From assembly GCF_003334385.1 (NCBI RefSeq), contig NZ_QOWN01000036.1: DNA of 43,104 bases. One strand, 5' to 3'. Made by a program: the position numbers and the translations under genes. Of this stretch, positions 17,906-39,905 are shown piece after piece. This stretch comes from Escherichia coli. Lineage in GTDB: Bacteria > Pseudomonadota > Gammaproteobacteria > Enterobacterales > Enterobacteriaceae. Every line of letters begins with the position of its first letter. Position 1 is the first letter of the stretch. The notes beneath the pieces are model-generated. The model saw nothing but the letters and a program-made list of their open reading frames with translations. It was not told the origin of the DNA and made no database searches.

Positions 17906-18076
17906 CCGTAGGCCTGATAAGACACGTTAAACGTCACATCAGGCATCGCTTGTCGGATGCGGCGCTAGCGCCTTATCCGACCTACATTGGTGGTCCCGTA
18001 GGCCTGATAAGACGCGTCAGCGTCGCATCAGGCTTCAATTGCCGGAGAAGGCGATAATGCCTTATCCGGTCTACAG
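17906..18076. repeat. REP/BIME cluster in the sucB-sucC spacer
   Basis: Multiple gtaggcctgataagacgcg... and cggatgcggcg... / ccttatccg palindromic units within a 274-bp intergenic gap. Confidence 0.6.
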
Positions 18077-22310: not shown

Positions 22311-22428
22311 CCTGATGCGCTGCGCTTATCAGGCCTACGGGTAATGACTTGTAGGCCGGATAAGGCGTTCACGCCGCATCCGGCACTGGTTGCCTGATGC
22401 GACGCTTGCGCGTCTTATCAGGCCTACG
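22311..22428. repeat. REP/BIME cluster in the sdhB-sucA spacer
   Basis: cctgatgcgctgcgcttatcaggcctacg..., ggccggataaggcgttcacgccgcatccggc... and gcctgatgcgacgcttgcgcgtcttatcaggcctacgg palindromic units. Confidence 0.6.
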
Positions 22429-26367: not shown

Positions 26368-27651
26368 ATGGCTGATACAAAAGCAAAACTCACCCTCAAC
26401 GGGGATACAGCTGTTGAACTGGATGTGCTGAAAGGCACGCTGGGTCAAGATGTTATTGATATCCGTACTCTCGGTTCAAAAGGTGTGTTCACCTTTGACC
26501 CAGGCTTCACTTCAACCGCATCCTGCGAATCTAAAATTACTTTTATTGATGGTGATGAAGGTATTTTGCTGCACCGCGGTTTCCCGATCGATCAGCTGGC
26601 GACCGATTCTAACTACCTGGAAGTTTGTTACATCCTGCTGAATGGTGAAAAACCGACTCAGGAACAGTATGACGAATTTAAAACTACGGTGACCCGTCAT
26701 ACCATGATCCACGAGCAGATTACCCGTCTGTTCCATGCTTTCCGTCGCGACTCGCATCCAATGGCAGTCATGTGTGGTATTACCGGCGCGCTGGCGGCGT
26801 TCTATCACGACTCGCTGGATGTTAACAATCCTCGTCACCGTGAAATTGCCGCGTTCCGCCTGCTGTCGAAAATGCCGACCATGGCCGCGATGTGTTACAA
26901 GTATTCCATTGGTCAGCCATTTGTTTACCCGCGCAACGATCTCTCCTACGCCGGTAACTTCCTGAATATGATGTTCTCCACGCCGTGCGAACCGTATGAA
27001 GTTAATCCGATTCTGGAACGTGCTATGGACCGTATTCTGATCCTGCACGCTGACCATGAACAGAACGCCTCTACCTCCACCGTGCGTACCGCTGGCTCTT
27101 CGGGTGCGAACCCGTTTGCCTGTATCGCAGCAGGTATTGCTTCACTGTGGGGACCTGCGCACGGCGGTGCTAACGAAGCGGCGCTGAAAATGCTGGAAGA
27201 AATCAGCTCCGTTAAACACATTCCGGAATTTGTTCGTCGTGCGAAAGACAAAAATGATTCTTTCCGCCTGATGGGCTTCGGTCACCGCGTGTACAAAAAT
27301 TACGACCCGCGCGCCACCGTAATGCGTGAAACCTGCCATGAAGTGCTGAAAGAGCTGGGCACGAAGGATGACCTGCTGGAAGTGGCTATGGAGCTGGAAA
27401 ACATCGCGCTGAACGACCCGTACTTTATCGAGAAGAAACTGTACCCGAACGTCGATTTCTACTCTGGTATCATCCTGAAAGCGATGGGTATTCCGTCTTC
27501 CATGTTCACCGTCATTTTCGCAATGGCACGTACCGTTGGCTGGATCGCCCACTGGAGCGAAATGCACAGTGACGGTATGAAGATTGCCCGTCCGCGTCAG
27601 CTGTATACAGGATATGAAAAACGCGACTTTAAAAGCGATATCAAGCGTTAA
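26368..27651 (+). CDS. gltA: Citrate synthase (type II)
   Basis: 427-aa ORF ([47 protein letters not shown]...) with strong Shine-Dalgarno (aaggag). Confidence 0.96.
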
Positions 27652-27679
27652 TGGTTGATTGCTAAGTTGTAAATATTTT

Positions 27680-27712
27680 AACCCGCCGTTCATATGGCGG
27701 GTTGATTTTTAT
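27680..27712 (+). terminator. Intrinsic terminator of gltA
   Basis: cccgcc-gttcatat-ggcggg hairpin followed by ttgattttta, about 30 nt after the gltA stop. Confidence 0.6.
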
Positions 27713-28039
27713 ATGCCTAAACACAAAAATTGTAAAAATAAAATCCATTAACAGACCTATATAGATATTTAAAAAGAATAGAACAGCTCAAATTATCAGC
27801 AACCCAATACTTTCAATTAAAAACGTCATGGTAGTCGCATTTATAACCCTATGAAAATGACGTCTATCTATACCCCCCTATATTTTATTCATCATACAAC
27901 AAATTCATGATACCAATAATTTAGTTTTGCATTTAATAAAACTAACAATATTTTTAAGCAAAACTAAAAACTAGCAATAATCAAATACGATATTCTGGCG
28001 TAGCTATACCCCTATTCTATATCCTTAAAGGACTCTGTT
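27713..28039 (+). promoter_or_regulatory. Strongly AT-rich upstream region of the ybgD fimbrial operon (candidate H-NS-silenced promoter)
   Basis: About 330 bp dominated by A/T runs, contrasting with the flanking gltA coding sequence; the ybgD Shine-Dalgarno (aaagga) is at its 3' end. Confidence 0.4.
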
Positions 28040-28606
28040 ATGTTTAAAGGACAAAAAACATTGGCCGCACTGGCCGTATCTCTGCTGTTCACTGCACCTG
28101 TTTATGCTGCTGATGAAGGTTCTGGCGAAATTCACTTTAAGGGGGAGGTTATTGAAGCACCTTGTGAAATTCATCCAGAAGATATTGATAAAAACATAGA
28201 TCTTGGACAAGTCACGACAACCCATATAAACCGGGAGCATCATAGCAATAAAGTGGCCGTCGACATTCGCTTGATCAACTGTGATCTGCCTGCTTCTGAC
28301 AACGGTAGCGGAATGCCGGTATCCAAAGTTGGCGTAACCTTCGATAGCACGGCTAAGACAACTGGTGCTACGCCTTTGTTGAGCAACACCAGTGCAGGCG
28401 AAGCAACTGGGGTCGGTGTACGACTGATGGACAAAAATGACGGTAACATCGTATTAGGTTCAGCCGCGCCAGATCTTGACCTGGATGCAAGCTCATCAGA
28501 ACAGACGCTGAACTTTTTCGCCTGGATGGAACAAATTGATAATGCAGTCGATGTCACGGCAGGTGAAGTAACCGCTAACGCAACCTACGTGCTGGATTAT
28601 AAATAA
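28040..28606 (+). CDS. ybgD: Fimbrial major subunit-like protein YbgD
   Basis: 188-aa ORF with signal peptide (MFKGQKTLAALAVSLLFTAPVYA) and a C-terminal beta-strand typical of pilins. Confidence 0.9.
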   Translation: MFKGQKTLAALAVSLLFTAPVYAADEGSGEIHFKGEVIEAPCEIHPEDIDKNIDLGQVTTTHINREHHSNKVAVDIRLINCDLPASDNGSGMPVSKVGVTFDSTAKTTGATPLLSNTSAGEATGVGVRLMDKNDGNIVLGSAAPDLDLDASSSEQTLNFFAWMEQIDNAVDVTAGEVTANATYVLDYK

Positions 28607-28616
28607 GTATTATTTT

Positions 28617-28637
28617 GGCGGCATCATCGCCGCCTTT
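28617..28637 (+). terminator. GC-rich hairpin between ybgD and ybgQ (candidate partial terminator/attenuator)
   Basis: ggcggc-atcatc-gccgcc followed by ttt, 11 nt after the ybgD stop. Confidence 0.35.
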
Positions 28638-28656
28638 CATAAAATATTTATCAGGT

Positions 28657-31113
28657 ATGGACACCGTGAATATTTATCGACTCTCTTTTGTATCCTGCCT
28701 GGTCATGGCGATGCCTTGCGCAATGGCGGTCGAATTCAATCTGAATGTTCTCGATAAATCAATGCGCGACCGCATTGATATTTCATTATTAAAGGAAAAA
28801 GGAGTCATTGCTCCCGGTGAATATTTTGTTAGCGTTGCGGTGAATAACAACAAAATCAGTAATGGGCAAAAAATTAACTGGCAAAAAAAGGGTGACAAAA
28901 CCATTCCATGCATCAATGATTCACTGGTCGATAAATTTGGTTTAAAACCAGATATCCGTCAGTCCTTGCCACAGATAGATCGGTGTATTGATTTCAGTTC
29001 CCGACCTGAAATGCTCTTCAATTTCGATCAAGCCAATCAGCAACTGAATATTAGTATTCCGCAAGCCTGGCTGGCGTGGCACTCAGAAAACTGGGCTCCC
29101 CCCTCTACATGGAAAGAAGGTGTTGCCGGTGTCCTGATGGATTACAACTTGTTTGCCAGCAGCTACCGCCCACAGGACGGCAGCAGCAGCACTAACCTGA
29201 ATGCCTACGGTACCGCCGGAATTAACGCCGGGGCATGGCGCTTACGCAGTGATTACCAGCTTAATAAGACCGATAGCGAAGATAACCATGACCAGTCAGG
29301 CGGAATATCGCGCACCTATCTTTTTCGTCCATTACCGCAATTAGGCTCTAAGTTAACCCTCGGCGAAACCGATTTCAGTTCCAATATTTTCGATGGTTTT
29401 TCTTATACCGGCGCGGCACTGGCGAGTGACGATCGAATGTTACCGTGGGAGCTGCGTGGCTACGCCCCACAAATTAGCGGTATTGCACAGACCAATGCCA
29501 CGGTGACGATCAGTCAATCAGGCCGCGTCATTTACCAGAAAAAAGTCCCGCCAGGCCCGTTTATTATTGATGACCTCAATCAGTCTGTTCAGGGCACGCT
29601 GGATGTCAAAGTGACGGAAGAAGATGGTCGGGTGAACAATTTCCAGGTTTCGGCAGCATCGACGCCCTTCCTGACTCGCCAGGGACAGGTTCGCTATAAA
29701 TTGGCCGCGGGTCAGCCACGGCCTTCCATGTCACATCAAACTGAAAATGAAACCTTTTTTAGCAATGAAGTTTCCTGGGGGATGCTCTCAAACACCTCGC
29801 TGTACGGCGGCCTGCTGATTTCTGATGATGACTACCATTCTGCCGCAATGGGTATCGGGCAAAATATGCTGTGGCTTGGCGCACTGTCCTTTGATGTCAC
29901 CTGGGCCAGTAGCCATTTTGATACTCAGCAGGACGAGCGGGGCTTAAGCTACCGTTTTAATTACAGCAAACAAGTGGATGCCACCAACAGCACGATTTCG
30001 CTCGCCGCTTATCGCTTCTCAGATCGTCATTTTCACAGCTACGCCAACTATCTGGATCACAAATACAACGACAGCGATGCGCAGGACGAAAAACAGACGA
30101 TCAGCTTATCCGTGGGCCAACCGATTACCCCACTAAACCTCAATCTTTACGCCAACCTGCTACATCAAACCTGGTGGAATGCAGACGCCTCCACGACCGC
30201 CAACATCACAGCAGGTTTTAATGTTGATATTGGTGACTGGAGAGATATCTCGATTTCGACGTCATTCAATACGACCCACTACGAAGATAAAGATCGCGAC
30301 AACCAGATTTATCTGTCGATTTCGCTCCCCTTCGGTAACGGTGGTCGGGTTGGCTATGACATGCAAAACAGTAGCCACAGCACCATACACCGCATGTCGT
30401 GGAACGATACGCTGGATGAACGTAATAGCTGGGGCATGTCTGCCGGACTGCAATCCGATCGTCCGGACAATGGAGCCCAGGTGAGCGGTAACTATCAGCA
30501 CCTGAGTTCAGCGGGTGAGTGGGATATTTCTGGTACCTATGCCGCCAGTGATTACAGTTCCGTCAGCAGCAGCTGGAGCGGTTCTTTCACCGCAACCCAA
30601 TATGGTGCAGCATTTCATCGCCGCAGCTCCACCAATGAACCACGCCTGATGGTCAGCACCGATGGCGTGGCAGATATTCCGGTTCAGGGCAATCTCGACT
30701 ACACCAACCATTTTGGCATTGCGGTGGTGCCGTTGATTTCCAGTTACCAGCCTTCCACCGTGGCGGTGAACATGAATGACTTACCCGACGGCGTAACAGT
30801 TGCAGAAAACGTCATCAAGGAAACATGGATTGAAGGCGCGATAGGTTACAAATCACTGGCTTCCCGTTCCGGTAAAGACGTTAACGTCATCATACGCAAC
30901 GCCAGCGGTCAGTTCCCTCCCCTCGGTGCGGATATCCGCCAGGATGACAGCGGCATTAGCGTGGGTATGGTTGGCGAGGAAGGACATGCCTGGTTAAGCG
31001 GTGTCGCTGAAAATCAACTGTTTACCGTGGTCTGGGGTGAGCAAAGCTGCATTATTCATCTGCCAGAACGTCTGGAAGACACGACCAAACGCCTGATTTT
31101 ACCTTGTCATTAA
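28657..31113 (+). CDS. ybgQ: Fimbrial outer-membrane usher YbgQ
   Basis: Large ORF with usher-family features; start ambiguous: ATG at 28657 (818 aa), GTG at 28666 (815 aa), or the track ATG at 28615, which lies inside the hairpin. Confidence 0.88.
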   Translation: MDTVNIYRLSFVSCLVMAMPCAMAVEFNLNVLDKSMRDRIDISLLKEKGVIAPGEYFVSVAVNNNKISNGQKINWQKKGDKTIPCINDSLVDKFGLKPDIRQSLPQIDRCIDFSSRPEMLFNFDQANQQLNISIPQAWLAWHSENWAPPSTWKEGVAGVLMDYNLFASSYRPQDGSSSTNLNAYGTAGINAGAWRLRSDYQLNKTDSEDNHDQSGGISRTYLFRPLPQLGSKLTLGETDFSSNIFDGFSYTGAALASDDRMLPWELRGYAPQISGIAQTNATVTISQSGRVIYQKKVPPGPFIIDDLNQSVQGTLDVKVTEEDGRVNNFQVSAASTPFLTRQGQVRYKLAAGQPRPSMSHQTENETFFSNEVSWGMLSNTSLYGGLLISDDDYHSAAMGIGQNMLWLGALSFDVTWASSHFDTQQDERGLSYRFNYSKQVDATNSTISLAAYRFSDRHFHSYANYLDHKYNDSDAQDEKQTISLSVGQPITPLNLNLYANLLHQTWWNADASTTANITAGFNVDIGDWRDISISTSFNTTHYEDKDRDNQIYLSISLPFGNGGRVGYDMQNSSHSTIHRMSWNDTLDERNSWGMSAGLQSDRPDNGAQVSGNYQHLSSAGEWDISGTYAASDYSSVSSSWSGSFTATQYGAAFHRRSSTNEPRLMVSTDGVADIPVQGNLDYTNHFGIAVVPLISSYQPSTVAVNMNDLPDGVTVAENVIKETWIEGAIGYKSLASRSGKDVNVIIRNASGQFPPLGADIRQDDSGISVGMVGEEGHAWLSGVAENQLFTVVWGEQSCIIHLPERLEDTTKRLILPCH

Positions 31114-31127
31114 TTAAGGAAAAGAGA

Positions 31128-31856
31128 ATGACATTTATTAAAGGATTACCCTTAATGTTGTTAACCATCAGCTTGGGTTGCAATGCTGCGGTGCAACCCG
31201 ATCGCACACGCATTGTGTTTAACGCCAATGACAAAGCCACCAGCCTGCGTATCGAAAACCAAAGTGACAAACTGCCTTATCTTGCTTATTCCTGGATAGA
31301 AAATGAAAAAGGGGAGAAAAGCGATGCTCTTCTGGTCGCTTTGCCCCCTATTCAACGTCTGGAACCGAAAGCGACATCGCAGGTGCGGGTTGTGAAACAA
31401 GCCTCAACCACACAATTACCTGGCGATCGCGAAACGCTATTTTTCTACAATATGCGCGAAATTCCTCCCGCTCCGGATAAAAGCAGCGACCATGCGATAC
31501 TTCAGGTCGCTATTCAAAGTCGTATTAAATTGTTCTGGCGACCGGCTGCATTACGCAAGAAAGCAGGAGAAAAGGTCGAACTGCAGTTACAGGTCAGCCA
31601 GCAGGGCAACCAACTGACACTGAAAAATCCTACCGCGTATTATCTGACCATTGCCTATCTGGGGAGAAATGAAAAAGGCGTTCTCCCAGGCTTCAAAACC
31701 GTGATGGTTGCACCTTTTAGTACGGTCAACACAAACACCGGAAGTTATAGCGGCAGCCAGTTTTATCTCGGTTACATGGATGATTACGGCGCATTACGCA
31801 TGACGACGCTCAACTGCAGCGGACAATGCCGTTTACAAGCAGTGGAGGCGAAATGA
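31128..31856 (+). CDS. ybgP: Fimbrial periplasmic chaperone YbgP (PapD-like)
   Basis: 242 aa from [20 protein letters not shown] with a good Shine-Dalgarno (aaggaaaagag); the track ORF adds 8 upstream codons. Confidence 0.9.
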
Positions 31857-32914
31857 GTGCTGGCAAGGGATTGTTGCTCGTCATCTGCCTGTTATTTCTG
31901 CCGTTGAAGTCTGCAATGGCGCTGAACTGCTATTTTGGTACATCTGGTGGCGCAGTAGAAAAATCAGAAGCGATTCAACCGTTTGCTGTACCAGGCAATG
32001 CCAAACCCGGTGATAAGATCTGGGAATCTGACGATATTAAAATTCCCGTCTATTGTGACAACAATACCAACGGCAACTTTGAAAGCGAGCATGTCTACGC
32101 CTGGGTAAACCCCTATCCGGGGGTGCAGGATCGTTATTATCAACTCGGCGTGACATACAACGGTGTCGATTACGATGCCAGTCTGGGAAAAAGTCGCATC
32201 GACACTAACCAGTGTATCGACAGTAAGAACATTGATATTTATACCCCTGAGCAGATCATCGCGATGGGATGGCAGAACAAAATTTGCTCGGGCGATCCCG
32301 CTAATATTCATATGTCGCGTACCTTTCTCGCTCGCATGCGGTTATACGTCAAAATACGAGAAATGCCGCCGCATGATTATCAAAGTACGCTTAGCGACTA
32401 TATCGTCGTGCAATTTGACGGTGCCGGTAGCGTTAACGAAGACCCTACTGCCCAAAACCTGAAATATCATATTACTGGTCTGGAAAACATTCGCGTGCTG
32501 GATTGCAGCGTCAATTTTTCCATTTCACCGGAAACACAGGTGATTGATTTTGGTAAATTTAATTTGCTGGATATACGTCGCCACACAATGTCGAAAACGT
32601 TCAGTATTAAAACGACCAAGAGCCAAAACGATCAATGCACCGACGGATTTAAAGTCAGTTCCTCCTTTTATACCGAAGAAACGTTGGTTGAAGAAGATAA
32701 AGCATTGTTGATTGGTAATGGTCTGAAGCTACGTTTACTGGATGAAAACGCCTCGCCTTATACCTTCAATAAATATGCTGAATACGCCGATTTCACCAGT
32801 GACATGTTGGTCTACGAAAAAACCTATACGGCTGAACTTTCGTCCATTCCAGGCACCCCCATCGAGGCTGGCCCCTTCGATACAGTGGTGCTTTTTAAGA
32901 TTAACTATAACTGA
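31853..32914 (+). CDS. ybgO: Fimbrial adhesin-like protein YbgO
   Basis: 353 aa from [23 protein letters not shown]; ATGA overlap with the ybgP stop; operon-terminal position typical of tip adhesins. Confidence 0.88.
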
Positions 32915-33065
32915 TTTACCATGATGCCCTTTGCCGCCGGAAAGGGCATCTCTTTCAGAAAATTGCTGATTTTCCCCTTTTCCTTGATTGCTGTTATTTT
33001 TTCCTGGCCCAGCTTTCTTTATGCTGTATCGATACACCAAAGAGAAAATAATGAGGGAGCGAAGG

Positions 33066-34112
33066 ATGCCAGTTTTGCAGTGGGGAATGTTATGTGTGCT
33101 ATCACTTCTCCTTTCTATTGGTTTCCTCGCGGTACATCTCCCGGCGGCGCTATTACTTGGGCCGATGATCGCCGGGATCATCTTTAGTATGCGCGGAATT
33201 ACTCTGCAACTTCCCCGCTCTGCTTTTCTCGCCGCCCAGGCCATTCTTGGCTGCATGATTGCGCAAAACCTCACTGGTTCGATTCTCACCACCCTGGCCG
33301 TCAACTGGCCGATCGTGCTTGCAATTTTACTGGTAACGCTGCTTTCCAGCGCCATTGTGGGTTGGTTATTGGTGCGCTATAGCTCATTGCCTGGAAATAC
33401 CGGTGCCTGGGGCTCCTCTCCTGGCGGCGCGGCGGCAATGGTCGCTATGGCGCAAGATTACGGCGCAGATATTCGCCTGGTGGCGTTTATGCAATATCTG
33501 CGAGTGCTGTTCGTCGCGGGGGCCGCTGTTCTGGTCACCCGCATGATGCTGGGCGATAACGCTGAAGCGGTTAACCAGCATATCGTCTGGTTCCCGCCAG
33601 TGAGCATTAATCTCCTGCTTACTATTTTGCTCGCGGTCGTTGCCGGTACAGTGGGATGCCTGCTGCGTCTTCCTTCCGGCACGATGCTCATCCCGATGCT
33701 GGCGGGCGCAGTGCTCCAGTCTGGTCAGCTCATCACCATCGAACTACCGGAATGGCTGCTGGCGATGGCGTATATGGCAATTGGCTGGCGGATTGGTCTT
33801 GGTTTCGATAAACAAATCTTACTGCGGGCACTACGCCCGCTACCGCAAATCCTGCTGTCGATTTTTGCTCTGCTGGCTATTTGTGCGGGTATGGCGTGGG
33901 GGCTGACCCGGTTTATGCACATTGATTTTATGACTGCCTACCTCGCCACCAGCCCCGGCGGGCTTGATACCGTGGCGGTCATCGCCGCAGGGAGCAATGC
34001 CGATATGGCGCTCATTATGGCGATGCAAACCCTACGCCTGTTCAGTATTTTGCTGACAGGGCCTGCCATTGCGCGGTTTATTTCAACCTATGCGCCGAAG
34101 CGGTCGGCCTAG
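33066..34112 (+). CDS. abrB: Membrane protein AbrB (AbrB-duplication family, putative regulator of aidB)
   Basis: 348 aa from [20 protein letters not shown]; polytopic membrane protein; the track ORF adds 26 upstream codons. Confidence 0.88.
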
Positions 34113-39775: not shown

Positions 39776-39905
39776 GCCTGATGCGACGCTTGACGCGTCT
39801 TATCAGGCCTACGTATTTCCTGCAATTTATTGAATTTGCACAAATTTGTAGGCTGGATAAGGCGTTCACGCCGCATCCGGCATCTGGGCTCGATTGCCTG
39901 ACGCG
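39776..39905. repeat. REP/BIME (RIP-like) element in the convergent dtpD-phr spacer
   Basis: gcctgatgcgacgcttgacgcgtcttatcaggcctac and tgtaggctggataaggcgttcacgccgcatccggcat palindromes flanking ctgcaatttattgaatttgc. Confidence 0.6.

Follow-up and report, generated by a model that had tools for sequence, protein, structure and literature searches.

A small GC hairpin that ends the major pilin cistron of the Escherichia coli fimbrial operon ybgDQPO is more than a product of chance and is conserved across several genera, and its probable effect is an excess of pilin mRNA over usher mRNA. We observe the hairpin itself, its conservation and covariation among related loci, and the conservation of the downstream codon at which the usher gene may begin. 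Since the hairpin is kept without a U-tract in most other genera, the conserved element is the stem and not a whole terminator; with a U-run that is weak in K-12 and missing in most of those genera, the shared role is more likely that of an mRNA decay barrier than that of a classic terminator.

Organization of the ybg operon

The window (the whole stretch of DNA analysed, 43,104 nt) matches E. coli K-12 records at 100% identity, and in these RefSeq places ybgD, ybgQ, ybgP and ybgO between gltA and abrB, so that the gene assignments of an earlier sequence-only reading are right. Ybg (ybgDQPO, also written ybgOPQD) is one of the 12 chaperone-usher operons of K-12 (PMC8174762, PMC3559732), and the locus is this already known operon, cryptic or normally silent in K-12, where the cryptic chaperone-usher operons have been described as H-NS-repressed (PMC3559732). 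The intrinsic terminator of gltA (27678-27705; all features lie on the plus strand) marks the upstream boundary of the unit: the terminator scan calls its 12-bp stem, followed by TTTTTATATG, and it served as positive control for our d-score (d = +24), whose formula was applied with modern energy parameters, making all d values comparative only. Beyond it, the AT-rich gltA-ybgD spacer (27706-28039) is presumed to hold the promoter and silencing region; G+C across the intergenic interval 27652-28039 is 29%, against 51% in the window.

The first gene, ybgD (28040-28606, with its TAA stop at 28604-28606), is assigned by its open reading frame, RefSeq and NCBIfam fimbrial-protein models to a major fimbrial subunit of 188 aa; PF00419 is found on orthologues, an AAAGGA ribosome-binding motif lies 6 nt before the ATG, and the N-terminus (MFKGQKTLAALAVSLLFTAPVYA, followed by A) resembles a signal peptide. 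The usher gene ybgQ, taken from a conserved GTG (28666-31113; 815 aa), is covered over its full length by usher models, with PF13954, PF00577 and PF13953 (PapC_N, Usher and PapC_C) on the cluster representative and relatives. Its stop is separated by 14 nt from ybgP (31128-31856), a periplasmic chaperone of 242 aa by RefSeq and by NCBIfam chaperone models (SteC, StfD, StdC and FimC), whose orthologues carry PapD_N and PapD_C. UAAGGA stands 6 nt before ATG 31128; the longer reading frame from TTG 31104 has no ribosome-binding motif and was rejected. The last gene, ybgO (31853-32914; 353 aa), overlaps ybgP by ATGA (31853-31856), and its GGAGG motif favours ATG 31853 over the longer-frame start at ATG 31826, which was likewise set aside. 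The tight packing and the ATGA overlap remarked on earlier are thus borne out. Only residues 218-353 of YbgO constitute a Pfam Fimbrial domain, while residues 24-222 match the solved PDB chains 9rx0_A and 9rww_A (E about 1e-131); the adhesin-like protein has the layout of a two-domain tip adhesin, with a putative N-terminal receptor-binding domain and a predicted C-terminal pilin domain. Directly 3' of the ybgO stop, a further hairpin seen in the sequence (ATGCCCTTT-GCCGCCGG-AAAGGGCAT; 32924-32949; -13.5 kcal/mol, poor T tail, d = -42) is a possible structure at the operon end.

A conserved hairpin between ybgD and ybgQ

The hairpin that closes the pilin cistron, GGCGGC-ATCATC-GCCGCC (28617-28634), is set off from the ybgD stop by a 10-nt spacer, its first base being the 11th beyond that stop, and consists of a 6-bp stem, all G/C (28617-28622 with 28629-28634), closed by the loop ATCATC (28623-28628). 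It had been proposed at exactly this place, and both sequence and folding agree: the element alone folds at -11.9 kcal/mol, and the interval 28600-28660 folds with z = -3.4, equalled by 1 of 200 shuffles. The window holds five distinct all-G/C 6-bp hairpins (six overlapping matches) against 2.6 +/- 2.1 in Markov-simulated sequence, a total not above chance, and the bare count was dropped as evidence; position and conservation, rather than count, mark the ybgD hairpin as non-random. An Rfam search of 27600-33100 returned no family, even at E up to 1, and the hairpin is not a REP element.

Within E. coli, whose compared alleles are only 77-100% identical, none of the 12 stem positions varies in eight aligned alleles, whereas 18 of the 26 positions around the stem do (Fisher p = 4.7e-5), and the stem is invariant in nine alleles while loop and flanks vary. 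Relatives were gathered by protein search and exact-protein contig look-ups; a contig scan with YbgQ brought up nothing beyond E. coli and a contaminated MAG. All ten other loci thus obtained, which come from at least six genera and have usher identities of 63-83%, carry a GC hairpin at the equivalent position, 5-14 nt after the pilin stop except in Escherichia sp. E4694, which has it at 49 nt owing to an insertion of 39 nt. Two remoter relatives (usher identity 56% and 43%) have hairpins of unrelated sequence in the equivalent place, bringing the number of further related loci with such a structure to 12.

Substitutions in the stem are compensatory. The 6-bp core is unbroken in 15 of 15 distinct sequences, with CG-to-UA, UG and GC changes at three pairs (one natural variant of the stem reads GGTGGCC/GGCCACC), and every spacer folds better than its own shuffles (16 of 16; z -0.6 to -5.0). 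The covariation score observed across the 15 sequences was reached by none of 500 shuffles and slid controls all scored far lower, a significance that the shuffle control overstates because related sequences share ancestry; four of the six core pairs, being invariant in this set, carry no covariation information either way. The structure is thus kept whatever its sequence and whether or not a U-tract follows, and it stands where a cistron needed in excess ends, as is looked for in a decay barrier.

The start of the usher gene

Comparative evidence favours GTG 28666 as the start of the usher gene. The sequence-only reading had placed the beginning of the longest usher frame inside the hairpin, which is roughly right: the frame begins at TTG 28615, whose first base lies 2 nt short of the stem and whose last base is the stem's first G. 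Its dismissal of this frame as a false start stands, the TTG having no ribosome-binding motif and occurring only in K-12-like alleles; in the O157-type allele, strain E69 and Escherichia sp. E4694 the frame has a stop 13-14 codons upstream of the GTG. The TTG is excluded. Between ATG 28657 and GTG 28666, the two starts it preferred, both are present, and the choice is narrowed towards the GTG by conservation and by the spacing of the putative ribosome-binding motif AGGU (28653-28656), which lies 8-9 nt before the GTG, but 0-1 nt before the ATG, within a block (CAGGTAnGGAyrCC) that is kept across genera even where it is unable to code. The position of GTG 28666 is GTG or ATG in 19 of 19 loci, and in four of them it is the sole possible in-frame start. 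At the position of ATG 28657, five relatives ([Enterobacter] lignolyticus, Kluyvera, Citrobacter, locus L019 and Pseudocitrobacter vendiensis) have ACG, AGG or AAG, so that the usher must start there at the GTG-equivalent codon; L019 differs from a close Superficieibacter sequence by AGG for ATG at this position and keeps the GTG.

By inspection, translation from GTG gives a 21-aa signal peptide (28666-28728; MNIYR-LSFVSCLVMAM-PCAMA, cleaved before VEF) with the Sec features of a short basic N-terminal stretch (one basic and no acidic residue), a hydrophobic core and an A-x-A cleavage site. The form from ATG has 24 aa with an added Asp, and that from TTG has 38 aa with an atypical N-terminal region of 22 aa. 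The mature usher, beginning VEFNLNVLDK at 28729, is identical from all candidate starts. That the usher starts at ATG 28657-28659 and not at the GTG, as RefSeq/PGAP annotates (818 aa), seems to us a tentative alternative and on balance unlikely: ATG is the stronger type of start codon, it is kept throughout the Escherichia alleles and in Superficieibacter and Pseudocitrobacter faecalis, and 818/819-aa forms are widely annotated, but the sole motif resembling a ribosome-binding site is too close upstream, the codon is replaced in the five relatives named above, and starting there puts an acidic residue into the N-terminal region of the signal peptide. ATG 28657, on our preferred reading a lineage-specific extra codon within the usher start region, may be used as a start. 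For annotation, the gain lies in setting the RefSeq YbgQ of 818 aa against the 815-aa form from GTG 28666, to which a UniRef source gives the name YbgQ.

Possible roles of the hairpin in termination, decay and other processes

The stem is followed by a weak, interrupted U-rich tail, TTTCATAAAATATTT (28635-28649), inside an AU-rich single-stranded stretch. The sequence-only reading had given the hairpin the role of a partial terminator. A purely leaky Rho-independent terminator, at which a fixed fraction of polymerases would stop after ybgD and alone set the ratio of pilin to usher, draws support from the GC stem running directly into UUU, the first TTT after the stem being invariant in the eight aligned E. 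coli alleles. Most E. coli alleles read TTTCTTCA directly after the stem, 5 of 8 nt being T and d running from +4 to +13, and the Kluyvera tail (d = +13) and the full TTTTTT of [Enterobacter] lignolyticus (d = +36) also score well. K-12, however, reads TTTCATAA at this place: of the opening 8 nt of its tail UUUCAUAA 4 are T, too few for the simple terminator scan, which passes over the hairpin, and the d-score is borderline (nT = 2.74, d = -3.2). No U-tract follows the hairpin retained by Superficieibacter, E. albertii, Citrobacter, both Pseudocitrobacter species, L019 and Enterobacter hormaechei, whose d runs from -18 to -36. A partial-terminator role is thus not demonstrated, given the failure of the K-12 tail and the missing U-tract in most other genera, and we judge that termination alone is unlikely to account for the element. 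Weak termination in E. coli is possible on the tails seen there, while a decay barrier independent of a U-tract would fit the comparative data at least as well as a terminator.

Other roles can be weighed against the same sequences. The hairpin could act mainly on translation, shielding ybgQ from ribosomes that end ybgD and, together with pairing across 28642-28675, holding usher translation low; a second stem, predicted in K-12 over AGGU, ATG and GTG (-7.5 kcal/mol, z = -2.45) and unproven, would suit this, as would the greater conservation of the CAGGTAnGGAyrCC block compared with the signal-peptide codons. In five relatives, however, the second stem falls short of significance (z -0.04 to -1.3). 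The end of the GC hairpin is separated by 22 nt from ATG 28657 and by 31 nt from GTG 28666, and the hairpin touches neither the ribosome-binding motif nor either start codon. We hold a mainly translational role to be very improbable. The element is also a perfect inverted repeat in DNA, so that a DNA-level palindrome (a protein-binding site, for example), or conservation unrelated to expression, has to be considered. Yet arm spacing (3-6 nt) and stem length (6-10 bp) vary across relatives, the stem of one relative carries a U-G pair valid only in plus-strand RNA, and the distant relatives have another sequence with the same fold; the U-G pair and the loops of 3-6 nt point to an RNA structure rather than to a fixed DNA palindrome, and we regard these explanations as scarcely credible. 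There is, finally, a small chance that the hairpin is no ordinary terminator but a dedicated RNA element, independent of a U-tract and belonging to the whole Ybg-type clade of the Enterobacteriaceae, that sets the ratio of pilin to usher as a processing or stability signal or as a docking site for an RNA-binding protein.

A proposed model for uneven expression of pilin and usher

We lean towards a joint explanation, which we hold to be moderately probable, in which the hairpin uncouples pilin output from the rest of the operon through an exonuclease block and, in E. coli, some leaky termination, while a weak GTG start limits the usher; its transcript ends, mRNA half-lives and protein ratios are what we infer. 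As a conserved RNA structure ending the pilin cistron, the hairpin would separate the output of ybgD from that of usher, chaperone and adhesin, and the main mechanism shared among the genera would be the stopping of 3'-to-5' exonucleases. The full-length transcript might be cut in the AU-rich spacer, or polymerase might occasionally stop there; a stable ybgD-only mRNA would then persist while the downstream portion decays. In E. coli alleles the UUU after the stem probably contributes some leaky intrinsic termination, and usher synthesis would be limited further by the weak start, GTG 28666 with only a short AGGU upstream. An excess of pilin over usher, the functional outcome proposed by the sequence-only reading, is still the likeliest.

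Polymerases must read through the hairpin, since RNA-seq of STEC shows the four ybg genes changing in concert. Term-seq supplements (PMC7815308, PMC12207403) have no ybgD/ybgQ entry and are uninformative here, the operon being silent in laboratory K-12, and termination and decay protection are indistinguishable by sequence. The major subunit gene is likewise followed by the strongest within-operon hairpin in three other fimbrial operons of K-12, in a survey made with no shuffle comparison and with longer spacers behind the major subunit genes. A small GC hairpin is an ordinary feature of such fimbrial operons, and hairpins behind pilin genes have long been known to favour the subunit mRNA over that of the assembly genes, as in pap and CFA/I; the importance of the present case, uncharacterised and well conserved in a cryptic K-12 operon, is modest. 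Where Ybg is expressed artificially, the hairpin and the weak usher start may be expected to shape the subunit-to-usher ratio.

Comparison with known systems

The operon is that of the Ybg fimbriae of K-12, with no difference in its genes, and the papers searched contained no description of the ybg intergenic hairpin or of the usher start-codon question. A close parallel is papA of P fimbriae, where papBA processing yields a stable pilin mRNA with an RNase-resistant 3' terminator structure (PMC5927463); the CFA/I fimbrial operon (cfaAB) is a case of differential decay (PMC5927463). In pap as in ybg, a stable structure ends the major pilin cistron and pilin mRNA is presumed to exceed the downstream assembly-gene mRNA. 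The mechanism in pap, however, has been shown experimentally and involves cleavage by RNase E and a stem-loop at the 5' end, whereas that of ybg is predicted from sequence; ybgD, moreover, is the first gene of its operon, with no regulator gene upstream and with a weak U-tract. The malE-malF REP and the puf operon stem-loop, with which CFA/I cfaAB is grouped, are within-operon hairpins that shield the upstream segment from 3' exonucleases and need no U-tract (PMC5927463). The ybg hairpin, with a conserved stem but not a conserved tail, matches such intercistronic decay-blocking hairpins, although it differs from malE-malF in not being a REP and in having no Rfam match. At the protein level, the best NCBIfam models are StdB for YbgQ (642 bits) and SteC, StfD and StdC for YbgP; as the scores fall far short of the curated equivalog cut-offs (642 bits against 1289), Ybg is a relative, not a member, of the Salmonella Std/Stf/Ste systems. 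The Salmonella Std, Stf and Ste operons have the same order as ybg: subunit, usher, chaperone and further subunits.

The ybg operon and its products

Genome comparison matched the segment 27652-33000 to E. coli K-12 chromosomes at 100% identity, and between gltA and abrB RefSeq places ybgD (fimbrial protein), ybgQ (usher), ybgP (chaperone) and ybgO (fimbrial protein). The operon is already known: it belongs to the 12 chaperone-usher operons known in MG1655 (PMC8174762) and is grouped with the 'core-associated' fimbriae of E. coli, a species in whose commensal strains many chaperone-usher fimbriae are described as cryptic and H-NS-repressed (PMC3559732); Ybg fimbriae raise adherence to bladder cells, a result that PMC6033998 credits to Korea et al. 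2010. The gltA-ybgD spacer has a G+C content of 29%. Across the matched stretch one K-12 chromosome, NZ_CP047127.1, is a base longer than the window (5350 versus 5349), and comparison of gene offsets puts the extra base in this spacer (27652-28039); strain MLI106K4 carries an IS1 insertion within the matched ybg region.

NCBIfam models back the pilin, usher and chaperone assignments; the usher comes nearest to StdB and the chaperone to SteC, StfD and StdC, in every case with scores far under the equivalog cut-off. Because the Pfam Fimbrial domain of YbgO is confined to residues 218-353, and residues 24-222 form a separate N-terminal domain that is a near-perfect match to the solved PDB chains 9rx0_A and 9rww_A (E ~1e-131), we infer that YbgO is a two-domain subunit of the adhesin type. 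Entries 9rwu, 9rwv and 9rwe are related to these chains; a literature search found no paper describing the 9rx0/9rww-related structures.

All features listed by the sequence-only reading were found in the sequence, including the tight packing of the four genes, with ybgQ ending at 31113 and ybgP starting at 31128, and ybgP and ybgO overlapping by ATGA (31853-31856). Nine nucleotides past the ybgO stop lies a further hairpin, ATGCCCTTT-GCCGCCGG-AAAGGGCAT (32924-32949, -13.5 kcal/mol), whose T tail, CTCTTTCAG, is poor; this structure may mark the operon end. Elsewhere in the window, Rfam places tRNAs and RtT (1-282), the CpoB/ybgF thermometer (1209-1347) and ES036 sRNA (39805-39847), all on the minus strand, and naRNA4 at 17911-17982 (minus) and 22354-22424 (plus).

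A hairpin under selection

The GC-rich hairpin noticed downstream of ybgD is present, with a 10-nt spacer separating the stop codon (28604-28606) from the 5' arm GGCGGC (28617-28622), loop ATCATC (28623-28628) and 3' arm GCCGCC (28629-28634). In isolation it folds at -11.9 kcal/mol, and 28600-28660 forms the stable fold that the reading had proposed checking (z = -3.4 against dinucleotide shuffles). Such hairpins are not in excess: the window holds five distinct all-G/C 6-bp hairpins (six overlapping matches) against 2.6 +/- 2.1 expected, and conservation is the telling evidence. Although ybg alleles within E. coli are deeply divergent (77-100% DNA identity), the stem varies at none of 12 positions across eight aligned alleles, whereas 5/6 loop positions and 8/10 positions 5' of the stem vary (stem 0/12 versus neighbouring 18/26; Fisher p = 4.7e-5); the stem is intact in a ninth allele too, that of strain E69. 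We conclude that this is a genuine hairpin under selection, and of a familiar class.

The allelic lineages are themselves unusually deep. For 27652-33000, best-match identity is at least 99% in 925 E. coli genomes, 90-95% in 1998, 80-90% in 1092 and 60-80% in 412, and 662 of 5426 have no match; the O157-type usher protein is only 83% identical, against little or no difference in the flanking gltA protein.

Usher relatives were found by search, and the comparison took in their loci from E. fergusonii, Escherichia sp. E4694, Superficieibacter, E. albertii, [Enterobacter] lignolyticus, Kluyvera, Citrobacter, two Pseudocitrobacter species and one Logan contig. The four-gene layout is identical in all of them, and a GC hairpin lies 5-14 nt past the pilin stop in all but E4694, where an insertion displaces it to 49 nt. 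The 6-bp core is unbroken in 15/15 distinct sequences, among which pair 6-20 is C-G (12) or U-A (3), pair 9-17 is C-G, U-A or U-G, and pair 10-16 is C-G, G-C or U-A; the observed covariation score was reached by 0/500 shuffles, and slid controls all scored far lower. Two remoter operons (usher identity 56% and 43%) have a hairpin in this position too, of unrelated sequence, and 16/16 spacers fold better than their own shuffles (z -0.6 to -5.0). Since loop and stem lengths vary and a U-G pair occurs, these comparisons favour a structure in coding-strand RNA over a DNA palindrome.

Operon neighbours were compared between window 26368-34112 and loci of other genomes (L015-L018, L020-L022). The related operon's end adjoins a DHBP-synthase (ribB-like) gene, not abrB, in Kluyvera, Citrobacter, Pseudocitrobacter, Enterobacter hormaechei and [E.] lignolyticus, and upstream, Citrobacter excepted, LigB-family and Zip-family genes replace gltA. 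That site is occupied in [E.] lignolyticus by two very different operon versions (usher identity to YbgQ 65% and 43%). L010, a 3.2-kb 'MAG: Collinsella sp.' contig (JAIJJM010000367.1), encodes a segment that matches E. coli YbgQ at 100% identity; the bin is almost certainly contaminated with E. coli DNA.

The usher start codon

The longest usher reading frame opens at TTG 28615, rightly doubted as the real start: it lacks a ribosome-binding motif (-1.0 kcal/mol), would yield a presequence of 38 aa, 22 of them in the N-terminal region, and is restricted to K-12-like alleles, an in-frame stop lying 13-14 codons upstream of the GTG in the O157-type allele, E69 and E4694. We rejected it. The reading had left ATG 28657 and GTG 28666 as candidates, a choice now narrowed toward the GTG, whose equivalent is GTG or ATG in 19/19 loci. 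In place of ATG 28657, the RefSeq choice, [E.] lignolyticus has ACG, Kluyvera and the relative locus L019 have AGG, and Citrobacter (following a 1-nt indel) and P. vendiensis have AAG; four of these loci, those of [E.] lignolyticus, Kluyvera and Citrobacter together with L019, lack any other in-frame start upstream. A conserved AGGU lies 8-9 nt upstream of the GTG but just 0-1 nt upstream of the ATG, and the block CAGGTAnGGAyrCC is kept even where it is by necessity non-coding. Taken together, this conservation, spacing and loss suggest that GTG 28666 is probably the ancestral start, and it is the best supported; ATG 28657 is less likely but may be used in Escherichia. Databases carry both 815-aa and 818-aa ushers, and every candidate gives the same mature protein (VEFNLNVLDK from 28729, after AMA). 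A predicted AU-rich stem (28640-28678; AAAUAUUUAU paired with GUGAAUAUUU; -7.5 kcal/mol, z = -2.45) encloses the AGGU and both codons; it was not significant in five relatives examined.

Possible termination or protection of the pilin transcript

The K-12 stem and its tail, TTTCATAAAATATTT, are not called by a simple terminator scan with a minimum of 5 T in 8 nt. Under a terminator score after d'Aubenton-Carafa 1990, with ViennaRNA energies and values that are comparative only, K-12 scores -3.2, other E. coli alleles +4 to +13, Kluyvera +13, the gltA terminator +24 and [E.] lignolyticus +36; Superficieibacter, E. albertii, Citrobacter, both Pseudocitrobacter, L019 and Enterobacter hormaechei score -18 to -36. 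The partial terminator first proposed is a plausible reading and probably an incomplete one. Read-through must occur, because ybgD, ybgQ, ybgP and ybgO shift together in STEC RNA-seq (log2 fold change 1.6-2.3; PMC6033998). Because every compared locus has the stem but only some have a U-tract, the simplest function common to them would need the stem alone: the stem may shield the 3' end of the pilin mRNA from exonucleases, with leaky termination a possible add-on in Escherichia.

A hairpin after the subunit gene had also been suggested as a common fimbrial theme, which holds, judged by raw folding energies, in the three K-12 operons surveyed: in fim, yad and sfm the strongest within-operon hairpin lies after the gene for the major subunit (-12.1, -15.1 and -10.9 kcal/mol, respectively), other spacers having -1.9 to -9.4 kcal/mol or no hairpin. 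Protection of mRNA 3' ends has been described for papA and other operons with differential decay (PMC5927463), and we propose that the ybgD hairpin resembles the protected pilin mRNA end of papA.
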